NCBI GenBank assembly: GCA_964558645.1
Contig: CAZLEV010000007.1
Span: 96,001-160,000, forward strand
DNA: 64,000 nucleotides
Reading direction: 5' to 3'
Source: an uncultured archaeon
GTDB taxonomy: Archaea > Asgardarchaeota > Thorarchaeia > Thorarchaeales > Thorarchaeaceae
Shown: piece by piece, positions 29,345 through 45,941 of the stretch
Numbering within the stretch: position 1 is the stretch's first letter
Layout: each line of letters opens with the position of its first letter
Program-made: the position numbers and the translations under genes
Notes under the pieces: model-generated
Seen by the model: the letters and a program-made list of their open reading frames with translations, nothing else
The model's database searches: none
What the model was told of the DNA's origin: nothing

Positions 29345-30439
29345 TCATCGGGGGGGTTCTATCTTATCTGTTCCTCTCATGACAAGGTCTGCAATCACGA
29401 CTGCAGCAAGACATTCGACAACTGGCACCGCTCTCGGAACTATGCAGGGATCATGCCGACCTTTTATACGAATCTCTGTGTTCTGTCCAGTTTCAAGATT
29501 CACTGTGCTTTGCGGCCCTGCGATGGAAGGTGTAGGCTTGAAAGCCAACCTGAATACAATTGGCTGACCATTTGAAATTCCACCGAGGATTCCACCAGCG
29601 TCGTTCTTGAGTAATATCACTTTCCCGTTCTGGATTGCAAGAGGATCGTTGTTTTGGGAACCTTGACTGGCTGCACTGGAGAAACCCGCCCCGAACTCGA
29701 TACCCTTTGCTCCGGGAATAGCAAACATCGCTTGGCTCACTACGCTCTCTATGGATCCGAAGAGAGGCTCACCCACGCCGACTGGAACACCCAGGATTCG
29801 GCATTCGATAATGCCGCCGATCGAATCTCCTTGACGCTTCACCCTCGCAATCTCCTTGGCCATTTCAAACGAGATTTTGTGGTCGGCACACCTGACCGCA
29901 TTAGCATATGTTTGGGATCTGATTTCTTGATTAGTAGCCGGTGTATGGATTTTCACGTTACCAACTTGGACGACATGTGCAATCACCTCGATTCCAGCCC
30001 CTGCAAGCAGCTGCTTCGCAACGCTTCCGGCAGCAACCAGTGCAGCCGTCATTCTTCCTGAGAATACGCCGCTACCACGGTAGTCATTCTTTCCGTTGTA
30101 TTTAATTCGGGCAGTATAATCGGCGGTACCTGGCCGAGGGGTGTCCTTAAGATTGTCATAATGTGACGAGTTCGCGTCTGTATTGGGAATCGTCATGACC
30201 AAGGGGGCCTCCGTCGTCATCCCGTCAAACAGGCCGCTCAATACTGATATGGAGTCCATTTCTCTTCTTGCAGAGGTCAGCTTTCCTTGGCCTGGCCTTC
30301 GATGGTCTAAATCACTTTGGATGGCTTCCAAGTCAATGCCAAATCCCGGTGGACACCCTTCTATGATGACACCAACGCAATTTCCATGCGACTCTCCGAA
30401 GACATGTATCTTGAACTTCTGGCCGAATGTGAATGTCAT
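29345..30439 (-). CDS. aroC: Chorismate synthase
   Basis: GESHG, RRPGQ, PRPGTAD, SGRMTA, GGILGGISNG, FKPTPSI and GRHDPC motifs. Confidence 0.96.
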   Translation of the reverse strand: MTFTFGQKFKIHVFGESHGNCVGVIIEGCPPGFGIDLEAIQSDLDHRRPGQGKLTSARREMDSISVLSGLFDGMTTEAPLVMTIPNTDANSSHYDNLKDTPRPGTADYTARIKYNGKNDYRGSGVFSGRMTAALVAAGSVAKQLLAGAGIEVIAHVVQVGNVKIHTPATNQEIRSQTYANAVRCADHKISFEMAKEIARVKRQGDSIGGIIECRILGVPVGVGEPLFGSIESVVSQAMFAIPGAKGIEFGAGFSSAASQGSQNNDPLAIQNGKVILLKNDAGGILGGISNGQPIVFRLAFKPTPSIAGPQSTVNLETGQNTEIRIKGRHDPCIVPRAVPVVECLAAVVIADLVMRGTDKIEPPR

Positions 30440-31740
30440 ATCTTTCCTCCTGACAGTGTGTAGTTATTTGCGAGCTCAATTCTCCCTCCAAGAGTCTGAA
30501 TGTCTCGGATGAAGTTGGGATAGCTCTTGCTTATGCATTCTACACCTTCTACCACGGTGTTTCCGTCAGCAATCATACCTGCAAGAATGCAAGTCATCGC
30601 TATGCGATGATCGTTGTGGGAGTCAAGCGTGGCCCCCTTAAGCGTCGTGGGTCCTCTAATCTCAAGACCATCATCATTGATACTGATGTTAGCTCCCATT
30701 TTCCGGAGTTCAATGGAGATAGAAGCCAAGCGATTGCTTTCCTTGTAACGCAGCCTTGCCGCATTGTAGATTCGAGTTGTCCCATGCGCTTGAGTTGCAG
30801 CCAGGGTCAACACAGGGACAATATCTGGTGTTTGGCTCACGTCGATTGCGAGAGCCCGTAATTCTGAAAGACCAGTGGAGATGCTACGTCCTGTGTTTCT
30901 TACTGAAGCACCCATTTCATTGAGAATGTTGATGATATGGGCATCGCCCTGTTTCGAATCGCGTTTCAATCCAGTTACTCTGACATTCCCCCCTAGTGCT
31001 CCAGCGACCATCAAGAACGCTGCAGATGAATAATCACCTTCGACGTCAAACTCGTCTGAGTGGTACTCCTGGTTTCCAGGCATATGGATGTATTTCCAAT
31101 TATCTGCTGCTTCGGAATAGACTCCAAAATGTGCCATCGTTTCAAGTGTAAGTTCGACGTAGGGCTTGGACGCCAACTCTGTTGTGATTTCTAGTGTTGT
31201 GTCTCCGACAGCCTTAGAGCATGCAAAGAGGAGGCCTGAGATGTACTGAGACGAAACATCCCCACGAATCCTGACAGAGCCTCCTCTCAGAAGTCCTCCG
31301 TGGACTTCTACGGGGGGCCGCCCGTTCGAGTTGATTGACTTCGCGTTTACGCCCAGTTGACGCAGACCGGAAACGAGATGTTTGATGGGTCTTCTGGACA
31401 GAGTCTTATCTCCTGTCAACACACATCTTCCATCTGCTAAGGCAGAAAGTGCAGTGAAGATCCTAAGAGTGGTGCCGGATGCCCGGCAATGCATTTCCGA
31501 GGCAGGAGCACGTAGTCTATTCGGCCCAGTTATCTCCGTGGTGATGCCCCTGCGAATATCTGCGCCCATCATGCTCGCGTTCTGTAGTGTGACTTCGGTA
31601 TCGTCGCACAACAGAGGGTTGTTGATTCGTGTCGTTTCTGGAGAGAGAAGTCCGCATACAATAGCTCGATGTGTATGACTCTTTGACGGCGGAGTGCAGA
31701 CAGTTCCGTCAACTTCAGAATTCCAGACATTTGCCCTCAG
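30436..31740 (-). CDS. aroA: EPSP synthase (3-phosphoshikimate 1-carboxyvinyltransferase); start inferred at CTG 31740
   Basis: SGTTLR, SSQYISG, GDYSSAAF, LRYKESNR, DHRIAM and SYPNF motifs. The N-terminal PPSKSHTHRA motif lies upstream of the ORF-track start in the same frame. Confidence 0.93.
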   Translation of the reverse strand: MRANVWNSEVDGTVCTPPSKSHTHRAIVCGLLSPETTRINNPLLCDDTEVTLQNASMMGADIRRGITTEITGPNRLRAPASEMHCRASGTTLRIFTALSALADGRCVLTGDKTLSRRPIKHLVSGLRQLGVNAKSINSNGRPPVEVHGGLLRGGSVRIRGDVSSQYISGLLFACSKAVGDTTLEITTELASKPYVELTLETMAHFGVYSEAADNWKYIHMPGNQEYHSDEFDVEGDYSSAAFLMVAGALGGNVRVTGLKRDSKQGDAHIINILNEMGASVRNTGRSISTGLSELRALAIDVSQTPDIVPVLTLAATQAHGTTRIYNAARLRYKESNRLASISIELRKMGANISINDDGLEIRGPTTLKGATLDSHNDHRIAMTCILAGMIADGNTVVEGVECISKSYPNFIRDIQTLGGRIELANNYTLSGGKI

Positions 31741-32258
31741 AGTCCAAGCCTCCTTCGAATATGATCTACAGTTTCACTCACACCCATTGTGTCCGTACAG
31801 ACTTCTATGTCCTTGATGGCATCGTACAACCTACTTCTCTTTGCGAGAAGCTGTTTCACCTGCTCTATGCGTTTAGTTTCGTCCTCAGGCAAGAGCGGGC
31901 GGAGCTCAGAGGACCTAGCCCTTGCAGCGATTGTGGCAACAGACGCCCTCAAAAGAACAACCTGTGTGCGCTTGCTTATGATTTCGGAACTAGAAGGATA
32001 TAGGAGTGCCCCACCACCAAAACTGATGACAGCGGAGTTGATTTGGCACACATCCCTTACAACTCTCGCCTCAATCTCTCGAAAAGCCATTTCGCCAGAT
32101 TCCGAAAAGATCTCACTAATGGATTTGCCTTCTTGGTGTTCGATTATCTGATCAGTATCACGAAATTCTCTCCCCAAGCTTGCGGCTAGTGCCTTGCCTA
32201 TAGTGGTCTTCCCAGTAGCCATGAATCCAATCAGTCCGATGTTCGTCATACAATCCAC
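31737..32258 (-). CDS. aroK: Shikimate kinase, P-loop (bacterial AroK) type
   Basis: GFMATGKTT, DTD, GEMAFREIE, SFGGG, RPLL and R..LY motifs. Confidence 0.93.
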   Translation of the reverse strand: MDCMTNIGLIGFMATGKTTIGKALAASLGREFRDTDQIIEHQEGKSISEIFSESGEMAFREIEARVVRDVCQINSAVISFGGGALLYPSSSEIISKRTQVVLLRASVATIAARARSSELRPLLPEDETKRIEQVKQLLAKRSRLYDAIKDIEVCTDTMGVSETVDHIRRRLGL

Positions 32259-33109
32259 TAACTGTTTCCCCCTTTCAGGGCTTTGAGCACTGCCTTCTTC
32301 ATAACATTGATTGGTGCCTTCTTACCGGTCCAAATCTCGAAAGAAGCGGCTCCTTGTTGCACAAGCATAGTCAACCCATTGATGGTCTTACATCCAGATT
32401 CCTGTGCCTTTCTAAGAAGCTGAGTGCGCAGAGGGTTGTAAATTAGATCCATGACAATGTCAACTCTCGAAAGCACCTCTGCAGGAATCGGGGTATTGTC
32501 ACTAGAATGCCCTGTCATTCCAACAGGAGTACAGTTTACCAGAAGACTTGATTCCGCAAGTTTGTTCTCAATTCTTTCTAGATTATGGCACTTCACTTCA
32601 GTTCTACTTCGCATTCGAACCAGATTTGCCAGACTCCTGGCCTTTGGTAGTGACCTATTGAAGATGGTCAGCTCCTTCAACCCGGACCTGGCTAACGAAA
32701 ATGAAACAGCTCTTGCAGCTCCACCGGCACCAATCAGTGTTGCCTTCTTGGTTTGAAGACTCACATCCGCCTCTTCAATCGCTCTCTCAAAGCCCCTCAC
32801 ATCTGTATTGCATCCCACAACTGTCCCTTTCTCTCGATAGAGCGTGTTTACAGAACCCACAGCAAATCCGATATTCGAAACAACCGGGACATGTTCTATG
32901 ATTCTCGATTTGTACGGTATTGTGATGTTTGCTCCTTGTAGTTGGCCGGTAAGAATCGACTGGACTAGATCGGGCAGCCGAGCACCTTCCAAGACACAAG
33001 CTCGATACTCAAACTCGTTAGATAATCCCAGTGCAGAAAAAGCTGCATTATGCATTACCGGACTCATTGAATGCTCCAGCGGATATCCCACAACAACGAA
33101 TCTTTTCAC
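32258..33109 (-). CDS. aroE: Shikimate dehydrogenase
   Basis: HSMSP.MHN, NITIPYK, VNT, NTD, GAGGAARA, NCTPVGM, DLIYNP and GLTMLVQQG motifs. Confidence 0.95.
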   Translation of the reverse strand: MKRFVVVGYPLEHSMSPVMHNAAFSALGLSNEFEYRACVLEGARLPDLVQSILTGQLQGANITIPYKSRIIEHVPVVSNIGFAVGSVNTLYREKGTVVGCNTDVRGFERAIEEADVSLQTKKATLIGAGGAARAVSFSLARSGLKELTIFNRSLPKARSLANLVRMRSRTEVKCHNLERIENKLAESSLLVNCTPVGMTGHSSDNTPIPAEVLSRVDIVMDLIYNPLRTQLLRKAQESGCKTINGLTMLVQQGAASFEIWTGKKAPINVMKKAVLKALKGGNS

Positions 33110-33795
33110 AGGAGCACCTTCACAATTTTTCTCATCTGTGACAGGCTCATCTGGCCTGGAGCTGCTCGCCTTTGATTGTCCATAGAAACATACATGAATG
33201 GGGCACCCATGAGCAACGCATAGAGCCTACTGAGTCGCCCGAGGCGCCCCATTGCGAATGCAATCAGCGAATGTCGATTGTTGTGTTCAGCATCGTAGAG
33301 ATGCATGATTCTTCGACAGTCATCGATTGAACTAGGGGTAGTCACTATCTTAATAATGTCCGGATTTTGGATCAGCATACGGTCCCGCATCGAGGCAAGT
33401 TCACAATACTCAGGAGTGAAACTTTGATAGTGTTTTGATGCAATCAAGCGGCGATTGAGAGATTTAGCTCTCTTTTTGACGCGTTCAAACAACTCTGCCT
33501 CAGTTTCCACCTCGACATCCACATATGAAGCGCCGGCATCTATGCCCTCAAGTAAGTGCCCAATCCGATCCTGCTCGCTACCTTTGTAATGGCCGCCATT
33601 CCCTAAAGATCTGCAAGTGGCAATAATCGGGGCACTGGATGCACCGTATATCTCATCTAAGTCTTCAATCTTGCACATAAAGTCCATTCGATGTTCGATC
33701 AGCTCTGCGTCACATGCTCTTACAAACTCGATGCACCTAGGTGCGTTTTCTGCCGTCATTGATACACAAAGTTTCATCGTCATCTCCCTATTCAC
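33106..33795 (-). CDS. aroD: Type I 3-dehydroquinate dehydratase
   Basis: EHRMD, IATCR...GG, YVDVE, SKH, IIKIV, AMG..G.LSR and APGQ motifs. Confidence 0.93.
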   Translation of the reverse strand: MNREMTMKLCVSMTAENAPRCIEFVRACDAELIEHRMDFMCKIEDLDEIYGASSAPIIATCRSLGNGGHYKGSEQDRIGHLLEGIDAGASYVDVEVETEAELFERVKKRAKSLNRRLIASKHYQSFTPEYCELASMRDRMLIQNPDIIKIVTTPSSIDDCRRIMHLYDAEHNNRHSLIAFAMGRLGRLSRLYALLMGAPFMYVSMDNQRRAAPGQMSLSQMRKIVKVLL

Positions 33796-34880
33796 TCCTC
33801 AGTGTGGATATCGCCGCCAGAAACAGTGGTTCCTAGTGCAACTAGCTGAGTTCTTCTTTCTGCAGGAAGTCTGAAGCGTTGAGGCATCATCTCGCGTCGA
33901 GCAATGTCTGTCATGAATTCTCGAAACATGACAGGAGTGAGTGACTGGGGTCCATCAACCAAAGCCTCCGTCGGATTCGGGTGAACTTCTATCATGACTC
34001 CATCAGCTCCAACAGCAAAACCCGCTCTAGCAAGAGGAATTACCAGGTTTCGCTTTCCAGCCGCATGACTGGGGTCAACAATCACCGGTAGGTGTGTCAG
34101 ACTCCTCAATTCGGGAATAGCACACAAATCCAGTGTGAACCTGCTATACTGATTGTACGTCCTCATTCCTCGTTCGCACAGTATTACCTGATTATTTCCT
34201 TCTGCCATCACATATTCTGCTGCAGAAAGGAGTTCAGTCAGCGTAGCCCACATACCTCGCTTCAATAAAACGGGTTTACGCGACCGACCTGCACGCTTGA
34301 GTAGAGAGTAGTTCTGCATATTTCTGGCTCCAATTTGAATGATGTCTACTGCTGCCTCTACAGCGGGAAAGCTCTCTGTATCTACGGCCTCAGAAACTAC
34401 GGGAAGACCAGTTCGCCGTCGAGCCTCAGCCAGCAGGCTCAAGCCATGGTTGCCCAGACCCTGGAAAGAATAGGGCGAGGTCCGTGGTTTGAAGGCACCT
34501 CCTCGCAGGATGTCGCCTCCGCATTCTTTTACCAACTGAGCCGCTTCTATCATCTGATCCATGGATTCAACACTGCACGGTCCTGCAATGACCACAGGTC
34601 GTTTACCCCCAATCTCACATCCACCTACTTCTACTACAGTTCTTTCAGGATGCACTTCAATGTCTGCTAATCTATATGGTTTAGTTACACGAATGACTCT
34701 CATTACACCGGGCATTCCCGTGAAAGAGGAAACGTCTTGTACTCTCACATCTCCTGTGACGTTTATCACGGTTCGACTAATCCCGGGATTGACATGGCTC
34801 TTATAGCCCAGTTTCTCGATTCTTTCCAGGACTTCCGTCATTTGTTCGTGTGTTGCATTTGCGTACAGTATTACCAGCAT
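33792..34880 (-). CDS. aroF: DAHP synthase type I-beta with N-terminal ACT-like regulatory domain
   Basis: IAGPCSVES, FKPRTSPYSFQG, QIGARNMQN, LCERG, DPSH and EVHP motifs; about 65-aa N-terminal domain. Confidence 0.95.
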   Translation of the reverse strand: MLVILYANATHEQMTEVLERIEKLGYKSHVNPGISRTVINVTGDVRVQDVSSFTGMPGVMRVIRVTKPYRLADIEVHPERTVVEVGGCEIGGKRPVVIAGPCSVESMDQMIEAAQLVKECGGDILRGGAFKPRTSPYSFQGLGNHGLSLLAEARRRTGLPVVSEAVDTESFPAVEAAVDIIQIGARNMQNYSLLKRAGRSRKPVLLKRGMWATLTELLSAAEYVMAEGNNQVILCERGMRTYNQYSRFTLDLCAIPELRSLTHLPVIVDPSHAAGKRNLVIPLARAGFAVGADGVMIEVHPNPTEALVDGPQSLTPVMFREFMTDIARREMMPQRFRLPAERRTQLVALGTTVSGGDIHTEE

Positions 34881-34882
34881 TG

Positions 34883-35962
34883 TTATTCCATCCTTCTATT
34901 CGGTATCAAAGATCCCCCATCAACCATCATCATCTTGGTCCGTCCTATGTCAACGAGTACGGGAACCCTGAGCTTATCTCGCCTGATTTTCTTGTCTTGT
35001 CGAATGGCTAACTCCATCTCGTCTGCATCGAAGGTAGGGGGTATCTCGGTAGGCAGCTCAAACATCGATAGAGTAGTAATCAGCAGTTCAAGTGAATCAG
35101 TATCAAACAGGCCCAATCTGGCCGCGAAGCGGGCTTCTTCCGCAATTCCAATTGCCACAGCGAATCCGTGCGGGAGTCTGTATCCTGCACAGACTTCTAT
35201 TGCATGACCGACTGTGTGTCCATAGTTGAGAACCTCTCTCTCGCCTTTCTCCTCTCTTTCGTCCTCTTCAACAATCTGCGCCTTAGTCCTCAGGCACTTC
35301 TCAACAACCAATGCGAGTACTTCAGGTGTTCTCGAAAGGATATCCTGCCTATTTCCACGGATAAGCTCGAATAGATCCTTATCCAATGATACCCCATATT
35401 TGATGACTTCCGCAAGACCACTTCTGAATTCGCAAGTAGGCAGAGTCCCGAGAACACAAACGTCGGCAATGACAGCGTGCGGTTGGTAGAATGTCCCTAC
35501 AAGGTTCTTACCATGGGGTAGGTTTACTGCGGTCTTGCCTCCTATGGCGGAGTCTACTTGGGATAGTAGCGTTGTTGGAATCTGTACCAAACGCATTCCA
35601 CGTTTGAATGTTGATGCCACAAAACCCGCCAGATCTCCAATGACGCCTCCCCCAAGTGCGACAACAACATCTGACCGTGCCGCAGTGTTCTTGGCGAAGA
35701 AATCGTAAATTTCCCGTGCTATCTCAAGGGATTTCATAGCCTCTCCCTGTTTGACTGCCTTGGTGAATGACTTGAGTCCTACCTCCTTCATACCTCTTGA
35801 GAGTGGCTCGAGAAGTAACTCTGCTACGGTATCGTCAGTCAAGATAAAGGCTCTATCCCCTAAGTCAGCAATGAACTCACTGGCATTCTCTACTAGGTCC
35901 TGGCCGACAATGACCGGGTAGCTCCTACTTGTCGCTGTTACATCAAAAGTAGTATATTTCAT
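34883..35962 (-). CDS. aroB: 3-dehydroquinate synthase
   Basis: GGGVIGDLAGF, PTTLLSQVDSAIGGKTAVN, GLAEVIKYG, LNYGHTVGHA and HG.AVA motifs. Confidence 0.96.
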   Translation of the reverse strand: MKYTTFDVTATSRSYPVIVGQDLVENASEFIADLGDRAFILTDDTVAELLLEPLSRGMKEVGLKSFTKAVKQGEAMKSLEIAREIYDFFAKNTAARSDVVVALGGGVIGDLAGFVASTFKRGMRLVQIPTTLLSQVDSAIGGKTAVNLPHGKNLVGTFYQPHAVIADVCVLGTLPTCEFRSGLAEVIKYGVSLDKDLFELIRGNRQDILSRTPEVLALVVEKCLRTKAQIVEEDEREEKGEREVLNYGHTVGHAIEVCAGYRLPHGFAVAIGIAEEARFAARLGLFDTDSLELLITTLSMFELPTEIPPTFDADEMELAIRQDKKIRRDKLRVPVLVDIGRTKMMMVDGGSLIPNRRME

Positions 35963-36843
35963 GGGACCACCTCAGATGTTATCTGATCTTCTAACATGCA
36001 CAGGACGCGATACATGTCGCTATAGCTTTGAGTCAAATCTACAGTCCTTCCGAACTCTGCTTTGATCCCCCTACAAAACTCTCCAAAACCTTCCCCTTCC
36101 CCATTGAGGTCTCTTAGACCTGACGCTGTATGGTCGTGGAACTTCTTCAGAATTTCAAATGCGTGGCTGTTTCGTTTATGTAGGCCCTCATGCAAAGCGC
36201 AAGCATTGAACATCACTCCTCCGGTGAGCATCAGCTGCATCCTGAAGGTCGTCCCTCCTAGTTTCTGTAGAGTGGTTATGTTTTCGTTTCGGAGGACTGA
36301 CGCAATAATCAGATTAACAAAGTAAGGTAGAGAGATCGTGAGGGCCATGATTCTATCATGTTCTTCTGAATCAACAACAATAATCTCAAAATCCGGGAAC
36401 AGACGCCTAGCAGTATCTAATTCCTTGTTCTTGTTGATAAGGGGTATGAGGGCCATCCGCTTCTTCAGAATCTCCGCTCCCTCTCCAAACAATGGATGTA
36501 CACTCAGTAATCTGACACCATGCTGCTTCAGACTGCGTAGTGTTGCTGGTATTCCCGCCTTGATTGAGGAGATCTCACAGAGAACTGCCTCTTTCTTCAT
36601 TCTCGGTATGACTTCTCTAATGACTGCGCCAGTGCTCTCCATCGGAACCGAGATTATGGCCACATCAGCGTTGGATACGGCAGTGGTGTTGTCGTTCACG
36701 ACTCGTATGCCAAGTTCTTTCTCTAAATGCTTGATACTTGGTGCCAACGGGTCTGATACGATTATATTGCTCTTGTATGAGGAGAAGTAGTTGACAAGCA
36801 GCTTCCCCATTCTTCCAGCACCTCCTACTATTGCCACATTCAT
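35959..36843 (-). CDS. tyrA: Prephenate/arogenate dehydrogenase
   Basis: MNVAIVGGAGRMG Rossmann start in an ATGA overlap with the upstream stop; SSIK, HPLFG and HD.IMA motifs. Confidence 0.9.
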   Translation of the reverse strand: MNVAIVGGAGRMGKLLVNYFSSYKSNIIVSDPLAPSIKHLEKELGIRVVNDNTTAVSNADVAIISVPMESTGAVIREVIPRMKKEAVLCEISSIKAGIPATLRSLKQHGVRLLSVHPLFGEGAEILKKRMALIPLINKNKELDTARRLFPDFEIIVVDSEEHDRIMALTISLPYFVNLIIASVLRNENITTLQKLGGTTFRMQLMLTGGVMFNACALHEGLHKRNSHAFEILKKFHDHTASGLRDLNGEGEGFGEFCRGIKAEFGRTVDLTQSYSDMYRVLCMLEDQITSEVVP

Positions 36844-38237
36844 TGCAGAACACCCTCCATGGCCTTTACAGCCCTGACGATGACGTCTTCTGGTTGACAA
36901 ACTGATACTCTGAAGCAGTCTGAGTAGCCTGGACCATACGTTGAGCCGGGAGTGACACACACACCAGTTTCCGCGAGGAGGCGCTCTGCAAACTGAACGC
37001 CGTCCATATCACTCCGAGCTATCCTTGGGAAGACGTAGAAGCCTCCTTGTGGTGGAGCGAAGGACACCGGTAGCCGAGCCAGATGAGCAGATAGAAGGTT
37101 CAGCCTCCTGGTCACGGTCTTCACATGATGGCGTAACTCGTCATCGCAGTCAAGTGCAGCAATGCCTGCATGTTGAATGAATTCTGGGGTGCTGGTGAGG
37201 CACAGATTCTGCAGTTTCGTCATCTCATCGATTGTGTCCTTGTCAGACACAGCATAGCCCAGTCGAAAACCAGTCATTCCATAGCTCTTGGAGAAAGAAT
37301 TCACGTAGATGTGTTTGCTGTTCGTGAATTGAAGTATGCTTGTCGGACGTATGAGTGAGAAATCCGAGTACACTTCATCACTAAGAATAGAAATATCCCG
37401 TGATTCAGCAAGCTCCACAATCTGACTGAATGAGTGCCGTCCAATAACCTGACCTGTAGGATTAGCAGGAGAGTTCAGAATAATCATAGTTGTGGTGCTG
37501 TTTATGGCATCCTCTAACTCACCCAAGTTGGGAATCCAATTATTGTCGATTTGAGTGGAAACGTGGACAGGTGTTGCACCCGTTGCCTTTACAACATCAT
37601 CATAGGCTGGGTACGAAGGATCAAATATAATCACTTCATCTCCTGGACTACTATTTGTGGTAACACCCAAGAAGAGTGCGAATCTTCCGCCTGTGGTGAT
37701 GAGGACCTCATCTGCTGAGATTCTTGTGTTATGCTGCTCGCCGAGATGGTCGGCGACCTTTTTTCGAAGAGCGTAGATACCCGCCGATGCTGTGTATCGA
37801 GTTAGGCCCTGTGAAACAGCTTCCATCATTGCCTTCCTGACTGCATCTGGTGGACCAAAGTCAGGCTCCCCGATTTCAAGATGGGTGATAGGTCGTCCAG
37901 TCTTCTCTAAGGCCTTGGCCTTCTGCCATATGTCGTATGCTGTCAAAGGTGCTGAAGGCCGTATGATTTGGCGCTGAACGTTCTTTGATTCCGCAATCAG
38001 GAAATTCAGCAGTCTCAGAGCGAATCCTTTGTCATGATTGTCAGAATCACATTGATTGACCACCGATATCCTGAGATCACGCTCAACTTCCTTATTCAGC
38101 ACAGGATTTCCGAGCCGTGACTTTGCGTGAGCCACCTCCAAAGCAAGACAAGTACGTTTTCCTGCTAGAGAAACGATCTCCAACGTCAGTTTCTTGATTA
38201 GATTCCTTGTTCCTCGTAGCTTCGCGTTTTCATCCAA
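36840..38237 (-). CDS. Chorismate mutase (AroQ-like) fused to class I/II PLP aminotransferase
   Basis: N-terminal helical domain R..I...R...A...K...E...ESKNVQ, then GEPDF, NSPANPTG, SDEVY and SFSKSYGMTGFRLG. TTG start after GGAGGTG. Confidence 0.88.
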   Translation of the reverse strand: MDENAKLRGTRNLIKKLTLEIVSLAGKRTCLALEVAHAKSRLGNPVLNKEVERDLRISVVNQCDSDNHDKGFALRLLNFLIAESKNVQRQIIRPSAPLTAYDIWQKAKALEKTGRPITHLEIGEPDFGPPDAVRKAMMEAVSQGLTRYTASAGIYALRKKVADHLGEQHNTRISADEVLITTGGRFALFLGVTTNSSPGDEVIIFDPSYPAYDDVVKATGATPVHVSTQIDNNWIPNLGELEDAINSTTTMIILNSPANPTGQVIGRHSFSQIVELAESRDISILSDEVYSDFSLIRPTSILQFTNSKHIYVNSFSKSYGMTGFRLGYAVSDKDTIDEMTKLQNLCLTSTPEFIQHAGIAALDCDDELRHHVKTVTRRLNLLSAHLARLPVSFAPPQGGFYVFPRIARSDMDGVQFAERLLAETGVCVTPGSTYGPGYSDCFRVSVCQPEDVIVRAVKAMEGVLQ

Positions 38238-38367
38238 TATCAGACCACACCTCCAGAAAAGCAAAGCCATACTCTCCGATAAATGACCAATAAACTTGTG
38301 ACCACGCTGGGTATTTCGATAGAATCGGCATTTGGACTTCTGACTTCTATAAACATAAGACACCACC

Positions 38368-38466
38368 AAAACGAAAAGGCTCGACACAGAGGTCGATATC
38401 GTCAGTAGCGTCTCGACTTACAGATAATAACTATAATAGCCACTATACTGACAGGATTTCCCTGTC
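38368..38466 (-). promoter_or_regulatory. Candidate attenuator region: alternative pairing segments plus U-tract
   Basis: On the minus strand, UCGAC (38392-38396) can pair with GUCGA upstream (38413-38417) or downstream (38381-38385); the latter is followed by GCCUUUUCGUUUU. GUCAG(UA)UAGUG in the leader (38441-38452) can pair with CGCUACUGAC (38401-38410). Confidence 0.55.
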
Positions 38467-38498
38467 GTACGGATGTTTGCGGCTATTCCTCTGTTCAT
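38418..38498 (-). CDS. Tyr-rich leader peptide of the aro/tyr operon (MNRGIAANIRTTGKSCQYSGYYSYYL)
   Basis: ATG at 38498 (in-frame GTG at 38510) to TAA at 38418. Five TAT codons among the last nine sense codons. Co-oriented with, and 180 nt upstream of, the operon. Confidence 0.7.
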   Translation of the reverse strand: MNRGIAANIRTTGKSCQYSGYYSYYL

Positions 38499-38535
38499 CG
38501 AAACGTTCACTGAGCCCGTTCACGACCGTTACCCC

Positions 38536-38550
38536 TAATATACTTTGTCG
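38536..38550 (-). promoter_or_regulatory. Putative BRE/TATA promoter for the leader and aro/tyr operon
   Basis: CGACAAA-GTATATTA on the minus strand, 25 nt upstream of the in-frame GTG at 38510 (leaderless-transcript geometry). Confidence 0.5.
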
Positions 38551-42686: not shown

Positions 42687-45600
42687 CTAGCTCCGTTTTC
42701 TCATGATGAAGAGGATGGTTACCACCACAACGGCACCTATAGCTCCAACAATCAACGTGACAAGCAACAAATCAGAGTGAGGTGTTCCGGTCCCGGTCGT
42801 TGTTGTCCCACTAGTTGTAGTGCTGGTGATCGTTGTGCTTGTAGTCGTTGATGTGGTTGTGGTAGTTGTTGTTGTCAATTCTAGCACTGTTAGTGTAAAG
42901 GCTGCAGATGCGGCATTTCCACTTTCATCACTGACGGTCACATTTAATCCATACTCACCGGGTGATAACACAGAAGTGTTTGTCAGTAGACCTTCGGAAG
43001 AGACTGCGAAATGGACTGTGTCATTGACGCTCCACGTAAGAGGGGATAGGTCAGTGGCTTGCAGCTGGTATGCGAATGCATCCGTTTCATTAATCTCCTG
43101 ATTTGTCGGTGTCGTTGTCCAAGTTGGAGGGGTGCTATCCACAACGGATATCACGATTGTTGCCTGAATGGTATTGCGGATGTAGTCAGAAGATCTAACC
43201 GTCAATTCGTAGTCATCGACAGTAAGTGGGATTACATTCGTGATGATACCACTGGGACTGACTGTGAAATTGGTCTGATCGTTTATCCACCAATCTCTTA
43301 CTCCGACTGCTGAAGATGCCTTCAGCTGGATTGAGAATACATCACCCAGCTCTGAGGTTTGGTCCCAGGGTGTTTCGACCCACTTGAGAATGGGCTTCTG
43401 AACGAAGTAGGCAGATCCTGTGAGTGAGCCGGATGGAGCGTGATACCCTCCCATTGCTAACCCTCCTGCTCCAACTTCTATGATGGTATTGAAATACTCG
43501 ATATCTTCTGGGGTTCCCGCGCTTTCATTTGCAAGAAAATTTCCATCTAAGTCGACCCACAGGAAGTAGCCATCTCTATTGCCACCTGAGAAGCTGTAGC
43601 TCTCACCCGCAGCTGCCAATGTGCCGTCGTGAATCTGAACAATGGCTGCACAGTGGTCATTGAGGCTGCCACCATACGTGTAGTTCCATATGACGAAGCC
43701 TGTTCCATTTGTCCTCACCACAAATGCATCTCTATGAGTTTCTCCGACAGGAGTAATGTCGCCGGTCAAGGCAAAGCCGCCGTCAGACAGCTGAGCAACT
43801 CCTCGCGCAACGCTGACATCCACTCCATGGTACGAACGATTCCAGAGCTGAGCCCCATCCTCATCAATTCTCACGAGCCAAGCATCATTATTACAGGATG
43901 CACTGCCATTCGTATAACCTGCCAGCGCATAGCCTCCAGAAGCACATGATACGATATCAAAGCCCTCGTCAGTGGCTGACTGGTATCCATATGTCTTGTT
44001 CCAGAGATGGTTTCCACCGGAATCAGTACGGATGAGCCAGGAGTCGGTCTTTCCTGACGACGCCTCATGGGTTGAACCGAGAACGAGAAAACCTCCATCA
44101 TCGGTTTCCACCACGGAACGCCCTATGTCCGCCCCTGAGGCCACGAAGGTCTTGTTCCACAGGTGTTGTCCATATTGGTTGATTCTCAGTAGCCATACAT
44201 CATCATCGGGTTGAACAAGAGTTGTAGCGTAACCCACCGCTGCGTATCCCCCGGTTGAACAACCAATCAGGTCCATCAGAGCATATCCATCGGGGTAGAG
44301 CTCCGCCCACTGTTGATCTCCTGAGGAGTTGTACTTGGCGAACCAAGGTGCAACACTACCTTTTATGACTGGTTCGCTCCTACATCCAAAAACGAAACCC
44401 CCGTCAGGGTCCTCGACTATCCCCATTATTCTGGTGCGTTGGCCACTACTGAACTTGAAGCTAGAATAGACCCAGTAGACCGAGATGGTCACTTCAGCTT
44501 GAATCCAGTGCCCATGAGCATCCTCAACTTCAATCTCAAGTCCATGCTGACCAATTGGAAGCGATGTGGCATTCCGCAGGATGCCATTGGAATCCAGAGA
44601 AAAGTCTTCAGTGTTATTGACAGACCAGCTTAGAGGGCCATCAGTGGATGATGCGTTAATATCATAGTAGAGTCCTTGTCCCAGTTCCAGCTCTCTGTCT
44701 GTCGGCGCGGGATTCCACATGGGCTCAGAGAGCCTGTAGATGACAGTGTCCTGGTCCCCTACAGAAGGATTCACATACCCTGAGAGAGCATATCCACCAT
44801 CACTTACCTCGATGACCTTGTCCGGCCTATCGTCACCGGGGAGATTTGTCTTTTCTGACCACCATACCTCACCCTCCGAGTCTGTGCGTACCAGCCAGAT
44901 ATCTTCTCCCGTTCCTGGAGCGTACCCCGCCAACATATAACCGCCGCCAGAAGCGGAGGCAATTGAGATGGCCATCTCGTTCCCTGCACCGCCGTAGGTC
45001 TTATTCCATATCAGGTTCCCGGCACTGTTGTATTTGAGAAGATACATGTCGTACCCTCCCCCTCCCCAGCTAGCTGTGGTGCCGCACAAGGCATATCCCC
45101 CATCGGTGGAGTCTGTCAGACCGAAGCAGTATTCTATCTCGGGTCCGCCATGAGTCGAGTTCCATACATGATTCCCGCCTTCATCAATCTTCAAGAGATA
45201 GAAGTAGTTGCTTGTGGCATTCTGCATTGAAGCCGCAACCACATACCCATTTGCCCCGCCGAGGTCAAGCACATCACGGCCACCTAAGCTTTCGCCTTCG
45301 TCTATCTCTGCGTCCCAGGTCTGTACTCCGTTCAGATCAGTCTTGACAACATAGAGGGGGCCACCCATCGTGCCACTACCGACCAAGATGAATCCACCAT
45401 CATCTGTTTCCGCGAGGGCTCTTGCTTCATAGTTCGATCTACCTGTATAATTCCTCATCCAATCTACATTTCCATCAGTATCAAATCTGACCAAATAGAA
45501 GTAGTTCCATGATCCGATTCTGACGTAACCACAGGTAGCATATCCCCCGCTGCTGACTTCTATCACGTCCCATGCCCTCTCTAGGCTTCCATTGTCAACC

Positions 45601-45941
45601 GTGGTATTCCAGAGCTCCGTGCCATTTGCATCAACCCGAAGCAAATAGAGGTCATTGGCAGTCTGACCTGCAATCACGAATCCTCCGTCAGTGGTTTCAG
45701 CGATAGAATATCCCCGATCGTTAGCATTGTTGCCTGCAACATCATATATGAAGTTCCATATTGGATCGTTGGCCGATGCTTCAAAGCGATTCACGATATC
45801 CGGTTTCCCATCTGCGTTAGGTGTTATCTCAGATCTAACGCGATAGAATCCGACTGAGATGATGGCACAAAGCAATACAGCTAGCAGAATGCGACTCCTT
45901 CTGGCGTGCAATGATTTCAACCAACCATTTTGGTCGGACAA
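42687..45941 (-). CDS. Surface protein with two beta-propeller-like repeat domains, cadherin/Ig-like domains, Thr-rich stalk and TM anchor
   Basis: Repeats of DGG(F/Y)...G...D.WL.R.D..G..LWN.TYGG in two blocks, three W.VN.T..F..S..G...N modules, poly-Thr, TM and RKRS tail. Confidence 0.85.
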   Translation of the reverse strand: MSDQNGWLKSLHARRSRILLAVLLCAIISVGFYRVRSEITPNADGKPDIVNRFEASANDPIWNFIYDVAGNNANDRGYSIAETTDGGFVIAGQTANDLYLLRVDANGTELWNTTVDNGSLERAWDVIEVSSGGYATCGYVRIGSWNYFYLVRFDTDGNVDWMRNYTGRSNYEARALAETDDGGFILVGSGTMGGPLYVVKTDLNGVQTWDAEIDEGESLGGRDVLDLGGANGYVVAASMQNATSNYFYLLKIDEGGNHVWNSTHGGPEIEYCFGLTDSTDGGYALCGTTASWGGGGYDMYLLKYNSAGNLIWNKTYGGAGNEMAISIASASGGGYMLAGYAPGTGEDIWLVRTDSEGEVWWSEKTNLPGDDRPDKVIEVSDGGYALSGYVNPSVGDQDTVIYRLSEPMWNPAPTDRELELGQGLYYDINASSTDGPLSWSVNNTEDFSLDSNGILRNATSLPIGQHGLEIEVEDAHGHWIQAEVTISVYWVYSSFKFSSGQRTRIMGIVEDPDGGFVFGCRSEPVIKGSVAPWFAKYNSSGDQQWAELYPDGYALMDLIGCSTGGYAAVGYATTLVQPDDDVWLLRINQYGQHLWNKTFVASGADIGRSVVETDDGGFLVLGSTHEASSGKTDSWLIRTDSGGNHLWNKTYGYQSATDEGFDIVSCASGGYALAGYTNGSASCNNDAWLVRIDEDGAQLWNRSYHGVDVSVARGVAQLSDGGFALTGDITPVGETHRDAFVVRTNGTGFVIWNYTYGGSLNDHCAAIVQIHDGTLAAAGESYSFSGGNRDGYFLWVDLDGNFLANESAGTPEDIEYFNTIIEVGAGGLAMGGYHAPSGSLTGSAYFVQKPILKWVETPWDQTSELGDVFSIQLKASSAVGVRDWWINDQTNFTVSPSGIITNVIPLTVDDYELTVRSSDYIRNTIQATIVISVVDSTPPTWTTTPTNQEINETDAFAYQLQATDLSPLTWSVNDTVHFAVSSEGLLTNTSVLSPGEYGLNVTVSDESGNAASAAFTLTVLELTTTTTTTTSTTTSTTITSTTTSGTTTTGTGTPHSDLLLVTLIVGAIGAVVVVTILFIMRKRS

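Follow-up and report, generated by a model that had tools for sequence, protein, structure and literature searches.

Leader control of the kind considered here was found described only in bacteria in the literature searched. The closest layout is that of the mycobacterial leaderless polycysteine small ORF Ms5788A, in which the control codons pair with a Shine-Dalgarno (SD) site and stalling of the ribosome frees that SD (bioRxiv 10.1101/834739). The aroR-aroF attenuator of C. glutamicum is controlled by Phe and is insensitive to the supply of Tyr (review PMC11802643). In archaea, Tar (T. kodakarensis TK0271) and TrpY (M. thermautotrophicus) are DNA-binding promoter regulators (PMC6737238). Archaeal Ribo-seq papers mention possible upstream ORFs (uORFs), without function; no archaeal leader-peptide attenuator was found in the literature searched, which included few subscription papers, and the same search returned no Tyr-specific leader. 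An attenuator-like leader at the trp cluster of T. kodakarensis is said to have been suggested long ago. The two-uORF control of ATF4 and GCN4 relies on scanning and on eIF2 phosphorylation, and is not codon-specific.

The locus described here lies on the minus strand of a 64,000-nucleotide stretch of archaeal DNA, probably from a member of Thorarchaeia in Asgard archaea (the window), in which the original prediction had seen a tyrosine-sensing, trpL-like attenuator ahead of a shikimate/tyrosine operon. It is a strong candidate for ribosome-based Tyr sensing in an archaeon, one whose switch would be inverted in an unusual way and accompanied by a relay ORF. The leader contains a Tyr-rich sensor ORF (uORF1), a switch strand past its stop codon (segment 3), a U-tract, and the SD-like site (SD2) and start codon (AUG2) of a second ORF (uORF2). 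It resembles Ms5788A in its leaderless GUG, its length of about 30 codons, its C-terminal control codons, its long stable duplex and the presence of an SD in the switch, and differs in that the strand past the stop does the pairing, the stall is predicted to lock the SD, a relay ORF is present, the control codon is Tyr and the host is an archaeon. As in the ermC/cat/polycysteine type, an SD is sequestered in one state (SD2 with segment 3), but a stall would not free the SD of the regulated gene, as this SD belongs to uORF2. The general features of leader-peptide attenuators are found: a conserved short ORF, codons for the end product, and mutually exclusive, ribosome-dependent helices (the last by computation). 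The E. coli trpL, pheL and hisL leaders (Trp_leader, Phe_leader, His_leader) share with this one an ORF rich in end-product codons, alternative helices, a U-tract before the first gene and an untranslated state predicted to be off. Unlike in those leaders, the control codons are at the 3' end of the ORF, a 2:3 antiterminator is not conserved, the U-tract is not accompanied by a conserved GC-rich hairpin and 7-8 U, no Rfam match is obtained, and the helix formed on stalling would itself be the antiterminator. The aroR leader peptide of C. glutamicum likewise has a Tyr codon before shikimate-pathway genes, and Tar and TrpY likewise control archaeal aro, tyr or trp operons, though with no leader ORF. 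With ATF4/GCN4 control the locus shares, as an analogy only, a sensor uORF, a second uORF touching the main start and a signal of amino-acid starvation, but SD sites and RNA helices are used here.

The operon begins with a chorismate mutase-aminotransferase fusion (CM-AT), which has its own SD at 38254-38248 and starts 180 nt past the uORF1 stop (Table 1). The gene order is CM-AT, tyrA, aroB, F, D, E, K, A, C; the original prediction had the gene content right but listed the genes in another order. It had also held that pheA and trp genes are absent from the operon; prephenate dehydratase, trpA and trpE were indeed not found in the 93%-complete genome (3.6 Mb, about 50% GC, with a selenocysteine tRNA), but a lone trpB2 is present on another contig. 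The aroA start is most likely a CTG overlapping the aroK stop (31740-31737, minus), 8 nt past a GGAGG site; CTG is also used in relative G001, other relatives have ATG or TTG there, and gene callers shorten aroA. Near the operon, a 1084-aa protein (42687-45941, minus) gives only weak matches to beta-propeller repeats. No exact match was found in viral contigs. The CM-AT fusion has a patchy distribution, being present in 24 of 86 family genomes (16 genera), and might have been acquired; its relatives outside the family are distant and mostly lie directly behind aroC, without a leader, and the closest of them include Nitrososphaerota (36-38% identity).

Table 1. Positions of the leader elements and operon genes in the window, and of the trpE leaders at three other family loci.
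Feature	Position	Strand	Remarks
BRE + TATA box	38535-38549	minus	first T at 38542, 32 nt 5' of uORF1 start codon
uORF1 (Tyr sensor ORF)	38418-38510	minus	30 codons, GTG 38510 to TAA 38418
P1, 5' strand	38497-38505	minus	uORF1 codons 2-5; partner 38417-38409 when uORF1 is ribosome-free
P2	38487-38479 with 38443-38435	minus	inside uORF1
P3 hairpin	38466-38450	minus	inner, within uORF1
Segment 3 (switch strand)	38399-38417	minus	directly past uORF1 stop
P4, 5-bp stem	38381-38396	minus	variable tip of long 3:4 hairpin
U-tract	38368-38379	minus	two U4 runs; candidate aCPSF1/FttA site
SD2, Shine-Dalgarno-like site of uORF2	38361-38367	minus	core nearly invariant
uORF2 (putative relay)	38240-38356	minus	38 codons, AUG 38356
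CM-AT (chorismate mutase-aminotransferase fusion)	36840-38237	minus	TTG start 38237; PF01817, PF00155
tyrA, prephenate dehydrogenase	35959-36843	minus	
aroB, aroF, aroD, aroE, aroK, aroA, aroC	29345-35962	minus	mostly stop/start overlaps
trpE leader region, locus L258	3490-3690	plus	
trpE leader region, locus L259	18200-18390	minus	
trpE leader region, locus L267	1540-1760	plus	

Comparison with relatives confirms uORF1 as a real, conserved element. The leader is readable in 23 of the genomes carrying the fusion (at family locus L038 it is cut by the contig end), and a Tyr-rich ORF stands ahead of CM-AT/tyrA in all 23, which represent about nine lineages and not 23 independent tests. The original prediction had expected such an ORF in orthologous leaders. 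It is also present at five metagenome loci, and two others (L146, L148) show no clear Tyr leader. Five of the last nine uORF1 codons are Tyr, all UAU, as had been described; the start was set at the GTG at 38510, since the inner ATG is absent in several lineages. The BRE/TATA-like box was recovered as well. From the first T of the TATA box to the uORF1 start there are 31-33 nt in 21 of 23 leaders, and the intervening 30 nt are not conserved, a combination that points to a leaderless-type transcript, probably starting near 38510-38512. Relatives exchange ATG and GTG at the start with the distance to the TATA box fixed. Genome-wide, TATA-to-start spacing based on crude ORF calls showed no clear peak; pheA in relatives has a spacing similar to that of uORF1. 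The length of uORF1 varies between relatives by whole codons and all three stop codons are used. In the last 36 nt of uORF1 across the 23 leaders, the reading frame contains 90 of the 93 Tyr triplets, and Tyr accounts for 33% of the last 12 codons. UAU is used 85 times and UAC 5 times, against a genome-wide use of 50:50; UAU is thus the codon read by wobble, given the one tRNA-Tyr(GUA) detected in the genome. Constraint on the peptide sequence is weak (pN/pS 0.65, with changes at all codon positions), and a Ser-Gly pair ahead of the Tyr run, located in stem P2, is kept in most leaders. An open frame with five Tyr codons arose in 66 of 100,000 shuffles, and of the 37 small ORFs in the genome that follow a TATA box, uORF1 takes the first rank. 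uORF1 is probably translated, and a ribosome short of Tyr-tRNA would be expected to stall in the Tyr run.

The leader RNA folds better than shuffled versions of itself (z = -4.6; 0 of 200 shuffles). Free of ribosomes, uORF1 is predicted to fold into a long hairpin in which codons 2-5 pair with segment 3 (P1), with P2 and P3 inside; the alternative partner of segment 3 is the region formed by the U-tract, SD2 and AUG2. The original prediction contained neither P1 nor uORF2; P3, the 5-bp stem P4 and the U-tract are present as it placed them. Its call for covarying stems was answered in P1-P3, where 88.6% of alignment cells pair and 42 two-sided changes occur against 14 in shuffles, a test inflated by relatedness. 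Pairing drops to 29-41% when the register is slid. The two-sided changes involve four pairs in P1 and five pairs in P2 and P3, two stems in which about 90% of cells pair, and G-U pairs are kept in the stems, as in RNA. The register of segment 3 shifts between genera, hence duplex strengths were compared between a leader's own partner and that of another group: the own partner is stronger in 22 of 23 leaders for P1 and in 21 of 23 for segment 3 with the U-tract/SD2/AUG2 region, against 10/23 and 14/23 for two control pairs (null). By this comparison, both alternative helices are conserved. The 2:3 pair, between the Tyr-codon strand and segment 3, can be drawn in this genome, but its own partner is stronger in only 13 of 23 leaders (mean z -0.6). 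P4, proposed as the terminator stem, varies in sequence and length and is not the switch; it is no more than the tip of the long hairpin in which the U-tract and the SD are buried. The most conserved letters of the switch region are the SD and AUG, with AUG2 located 56-74 nt past the uORF1 stop across relatives. A search of Rfam with the leader gave no match near threshold.

The second ORF shows a different pattern of conservation. In relatives uORF2 has 25-52 codons, its pN/pS is 1.1 and its sequence is not conserved (in one assembly of a relative it is annotated as a 38-aa gene). Its stop always falls close to the CM-AT start, at the earliest 2 nt before it and at the latest 11 nt inside it, and both non-coding frames are used; the other genes of the operon are joined by the same kind of stop/start overlap. 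Based on this constant end and on the overlaps elsewhere in the operon, we read uORF2 as a coupled relay ORF. A frameshift, read-through or fixed-frame reinitiation leading from uORF1 to uORF2 was rejected, since AUG2 occurs in all three frames relative to uORF1 and the path is open in only 7 of 23 leaders. A sequestered CM-AT binding site that requires uORF2 was also considered and dropped: opening that site costs 13.1 kcal/mol versus 11.4 for other genes, which is no clear signal. uORF1 and CM-AT share a reading frame here, separated by just one TAA, an arrangement peculiar to this genome and not conserved. A 33-codon ORF with three Trp, three Tyr and three Phe codons (38331-38230, minus), which overlaps uORF2 and the CM-AT start, is not conserved in relatives either and is probably due to chance. 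The uORF2 of relative G009 (locus L052) contains a second short Tyr-bearing stretch that is like the end of uORF1 and is possibly an old duplication.

The effect of a ribosome on the leader was computed by masked folding, in which only RNA 3' of the ribosome may pair and the transcript is cut at the polymerase position; the fixed footprint makes these models crude. Opening the U-tract/SD2/AUG2 region is predicted to cost about 10 kcal/mol when the ribosome is stalled on the Tyr run and about 3.7 kcal/mol when the RNA is free or the ribosome is at the stop, a lock of 6-7 kcal/mol whose direction is the same in 21-23 of 23 leaders (middle Tyr codon, three footprint sizes). The opening cost of the ribosome-binding site of uORF2 (RBS2) rises on stalling by about 3.5 kcal/mol, with a rise in 20-22 of 23 leaders. 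In this genome the corresponding values for the whole region are 15.7 kcal/mol for the stalled ribosome, 5.9 with the ribosome at the stop and 8.2 in free RNA; since the region is partly closed in the free fold, the model depends on timing. The 2:3 pairing exists here, as had been claimed, but in this genome the region stays closed at every ribosome position that precedes the last codon. Stalling is thus predicted to form the downstream helix, which is the reverse of classical attenuators, and the proposed trpL-like 1:2/2:3/3:4 logic is not supported; the wider idea of a Tyr-codon leader with alternative RNA folds before tyrosine-branch genes is supported. That the locus senses tyrosine by way of ribosomes, in some form, is very likely in our judgement. 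As a Tyr stall ahead of a biosynthetic operon should mean on, three readings of the locking helix are left: it hides a terminator, it silences a uORF2 that acts as a repressor, or it forms because abundant tyrosine has brought about the stall.

In the leading explanation, the stall hides a termination site for aCPSF1/FttA, so that low tyrosine would give read-through (probability about 0.5). A ribosome would load on the leaderless GUG and open P1. With ample Tyr-tRNA it would reach the stop, cover segment 3 and depart, after which P1 would close, the U-tract and the next 15 nt would leave the polymerase single-stranded, and aCPSF1/FttA, or the U-tract itself, would terminate transcription. With scarce Tyr-tRNA the ribosome would pause on the UAU run, and the free segment 3 would pair with the emerging U-tract/SD2/AUG2 region, hiding the terminator and allowing the polymerase to continue. 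Once the delayed ribosome arrived at the stop, SD2 would open, uORF2 would be translated and ribosomes would be passed to CM-AT by stop/start coupling. The original remark that U-tract exposure rather than a hairpin might be the output agrees with this scheme. At least six U in the 10 nt before SD2 are found in 91% of leaders versus 2% of other SD-led starts. The published binding site of FttA is a U-rich stretch at positions -30 to -36, counted from the RNA 3' end, with a preference for U at -23 (PMC11616081), and two U4 runs are the minimum aCPSF1 site reported (PMC8716108). The FttA-bound stretch (-30 to -36) is outside the polymerase and is the part that segment 3 covers; by estimate, it would emerge about 10 nt ahead of the point at which AUG2 could receive a ribosome. 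At the -23 position, 16 of 23 leaders have U, and this genome has G; a U4 run occurs in 12 of 23 leaders, and two such runs in 2 of 23, including this genome. aCPSF1 is encoded in the genome, and a pyrimidine tract also lies 3' of the uORF in trpB2 leaders of the family. It is on the U enrichment, the FttA geometry, the U4 runs, the encoded aCPSF1 and this pyrimidine tract that the terminator reading leads. Clear U-richness was not seen at the gene ends of this genome, as judged with crude ORF calls. Against a terminator, the U-richness could simply be the complement of the purine-rich segment 3, and the fact that the SD and AUG are the best-conserved letters of the region points to translation. 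The complete scheme, in which a leaderless ribosome senses Tyr, the stall helix hides an aCPSF1/FttA cleavage site and the relay ORF restores coupling, is held tentatively, at somewhat less than even odds.

The same conserved letters would fit a translational double negative, in which a Tyr stall locks SD2, silences uORF2 as a repressor and so turns CM-AT on, in a two-uORF logic like that of ATF4. The locked region does hold SD2 and AUG2, the RBS2 opening cost does rise by about 3.5 kcal/mol on stalling, and uORF2 always spans the CM-AT SD, which is no more structured than average. Repression would have to come from uORF2 ribosomes running over the CM-AT ribosome-binding site, and occlusion of a binding site by upstream ribosomes is reported in bacteria (PMC13285730), but for close binding sites and not for sites 120 nt apart. 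Moreover, the end of uORF2 at the CM-AT start has the geometry of positive coupling, as in the rest of the operon, and the U-tract is left unexplained; we regard the double negative as unlikely, and its proposed means to the same degree. Another reading needs neither a terminator nor a repressor to obtain the right sign: free tyrosine would stall the ribosome through the nascent peptide, SD2 would lock, the relay would be lost and the operon would be switched off, with uORF2 looking like the positive relay that this requires. In fungi, the arginine attenuator peptide stalls the ribosome in this manner in response to Arg. The Ser-Gly kept ahead of the Tyr run in most leaders would suit a peptide of this kind, but it falls in stem P2, the peptide as a whole is weakly constrained (pN/pS 0.65), and the 85:5 bias for UAU suggests that decoding speed matters over peptide sequence, so that product-induced arrest seems slightly less probable still.

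Alternatively, the Tyr run might only reflect some other function of this stretch, as a DNA operator, as a further TATA box or as a site of RNA-protein contact; the ORF would then be untranslated, or translated without sensing tyrosine. The run is an AT-rich near-palindrome, the Ser codons in it are all AGY, and the archaeal aromatic operons studied use the DNA-binding regulators Tar and TrpY (PMC6737238). Nevertheless, start, frame and stop survive insertions and codon exchanges, the Tyr-run motif occurs once in the genome even at three mismatches, no purine-rich BRE precedes the run, and the stems keep G-U pairs in an RNA-like fashion; we consider this explanation improbable. Lowest in our ranking is the classical trpL-type attenuator, in which the 5-bp hairpin with the U-tract terminates and 2:3 forms as the antiterminator on stalling. 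All the pairings that it names can be drawn in this genome and some hairpin precedes the U-tract in most leaders, but conservation of 2:3 is lacking (13/23, z -0.6), a stalled ribosome would cover segment 2, which carries the Tyr codons, the region here stays closed at all ribosome positions ahead of the last codon, and a ribosome at the stop does not extend as far as P4; the odds against it are therefore long. A small remainder of the probability is assigned to none of these explanations.

Judged from gene arrangement, the control codon tracks the end product of the pathway. In relatives G008 and G009, which provide a natural control, the aro genes are inside a complete trp operon, away from CM-AT and tyrA; the Tyr leader remains with CM-AT/tyrA and the trp-aro operon bears a different leader with a Trp codon. 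In the eight pheA-bearing relatives no Phe leader was found before pheA, which is directly preceded by a TATA-like box; Phe codons are present in the leaders of 5 of these 8 genomes versus 4 of 15 others, with too few lineages for a comparison. Trp-codon leaders of two types were observed elsewhere in the family. A leader ORF (loci L223-L252) is located about 190-270 nt upstream of trpB2, the copy of this genome (L231) being cut by the contig end; it has a near-invariant Gln-Trp, and an AUG overlaps the UGG with AUGA-like stop/start geometry in 28 of 29 cases. The -1 frame is open for about 200 nt across the pyrimidine tract; by a strict positional cut-off, its end lies close to the start of trpB2 in 22 of 29 cases. 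Reinitiation at the hungry Trp codon is a candidate mechanism. The second type stands before trpE, the first gene of a full trp-aro operon in three family members, and is an SD-led ORF of 16-20 codons with a Trp codon near its end (Table 1). Read backwards from trpE, its frame (+1) stays open into this leader ORF, and in G009 it has no ATG, GTG or TTG until well inside the first domain; ribosomes may shift by +1 at the Trp codon, or they may start at an AUU.

A Tyr-specific leader is in itself unusual, and this one is a candidate for uORF-based amino-acid sensing in an Asgard lineage. The switch spans 270 nt and would test compactly whether an archaeal ribosome and FttA compete on nascent RNA; its state would follow the position of the ribosome and might also require aCPSF1, and Thermococcus, Methanococcus or Haloferax could serve as hosts for a transferred copy. 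If the terminator reading is true, attenuation would here have been rebuilt around an archaeal, CPSF73-like terminator and, together with the Trp leaders of trpB2 and trpE, the locus would be one of a set of leaders, spread through the family and each combining a sensor with a relay, in those prokaryotes that are most closely related to eukaryotes.
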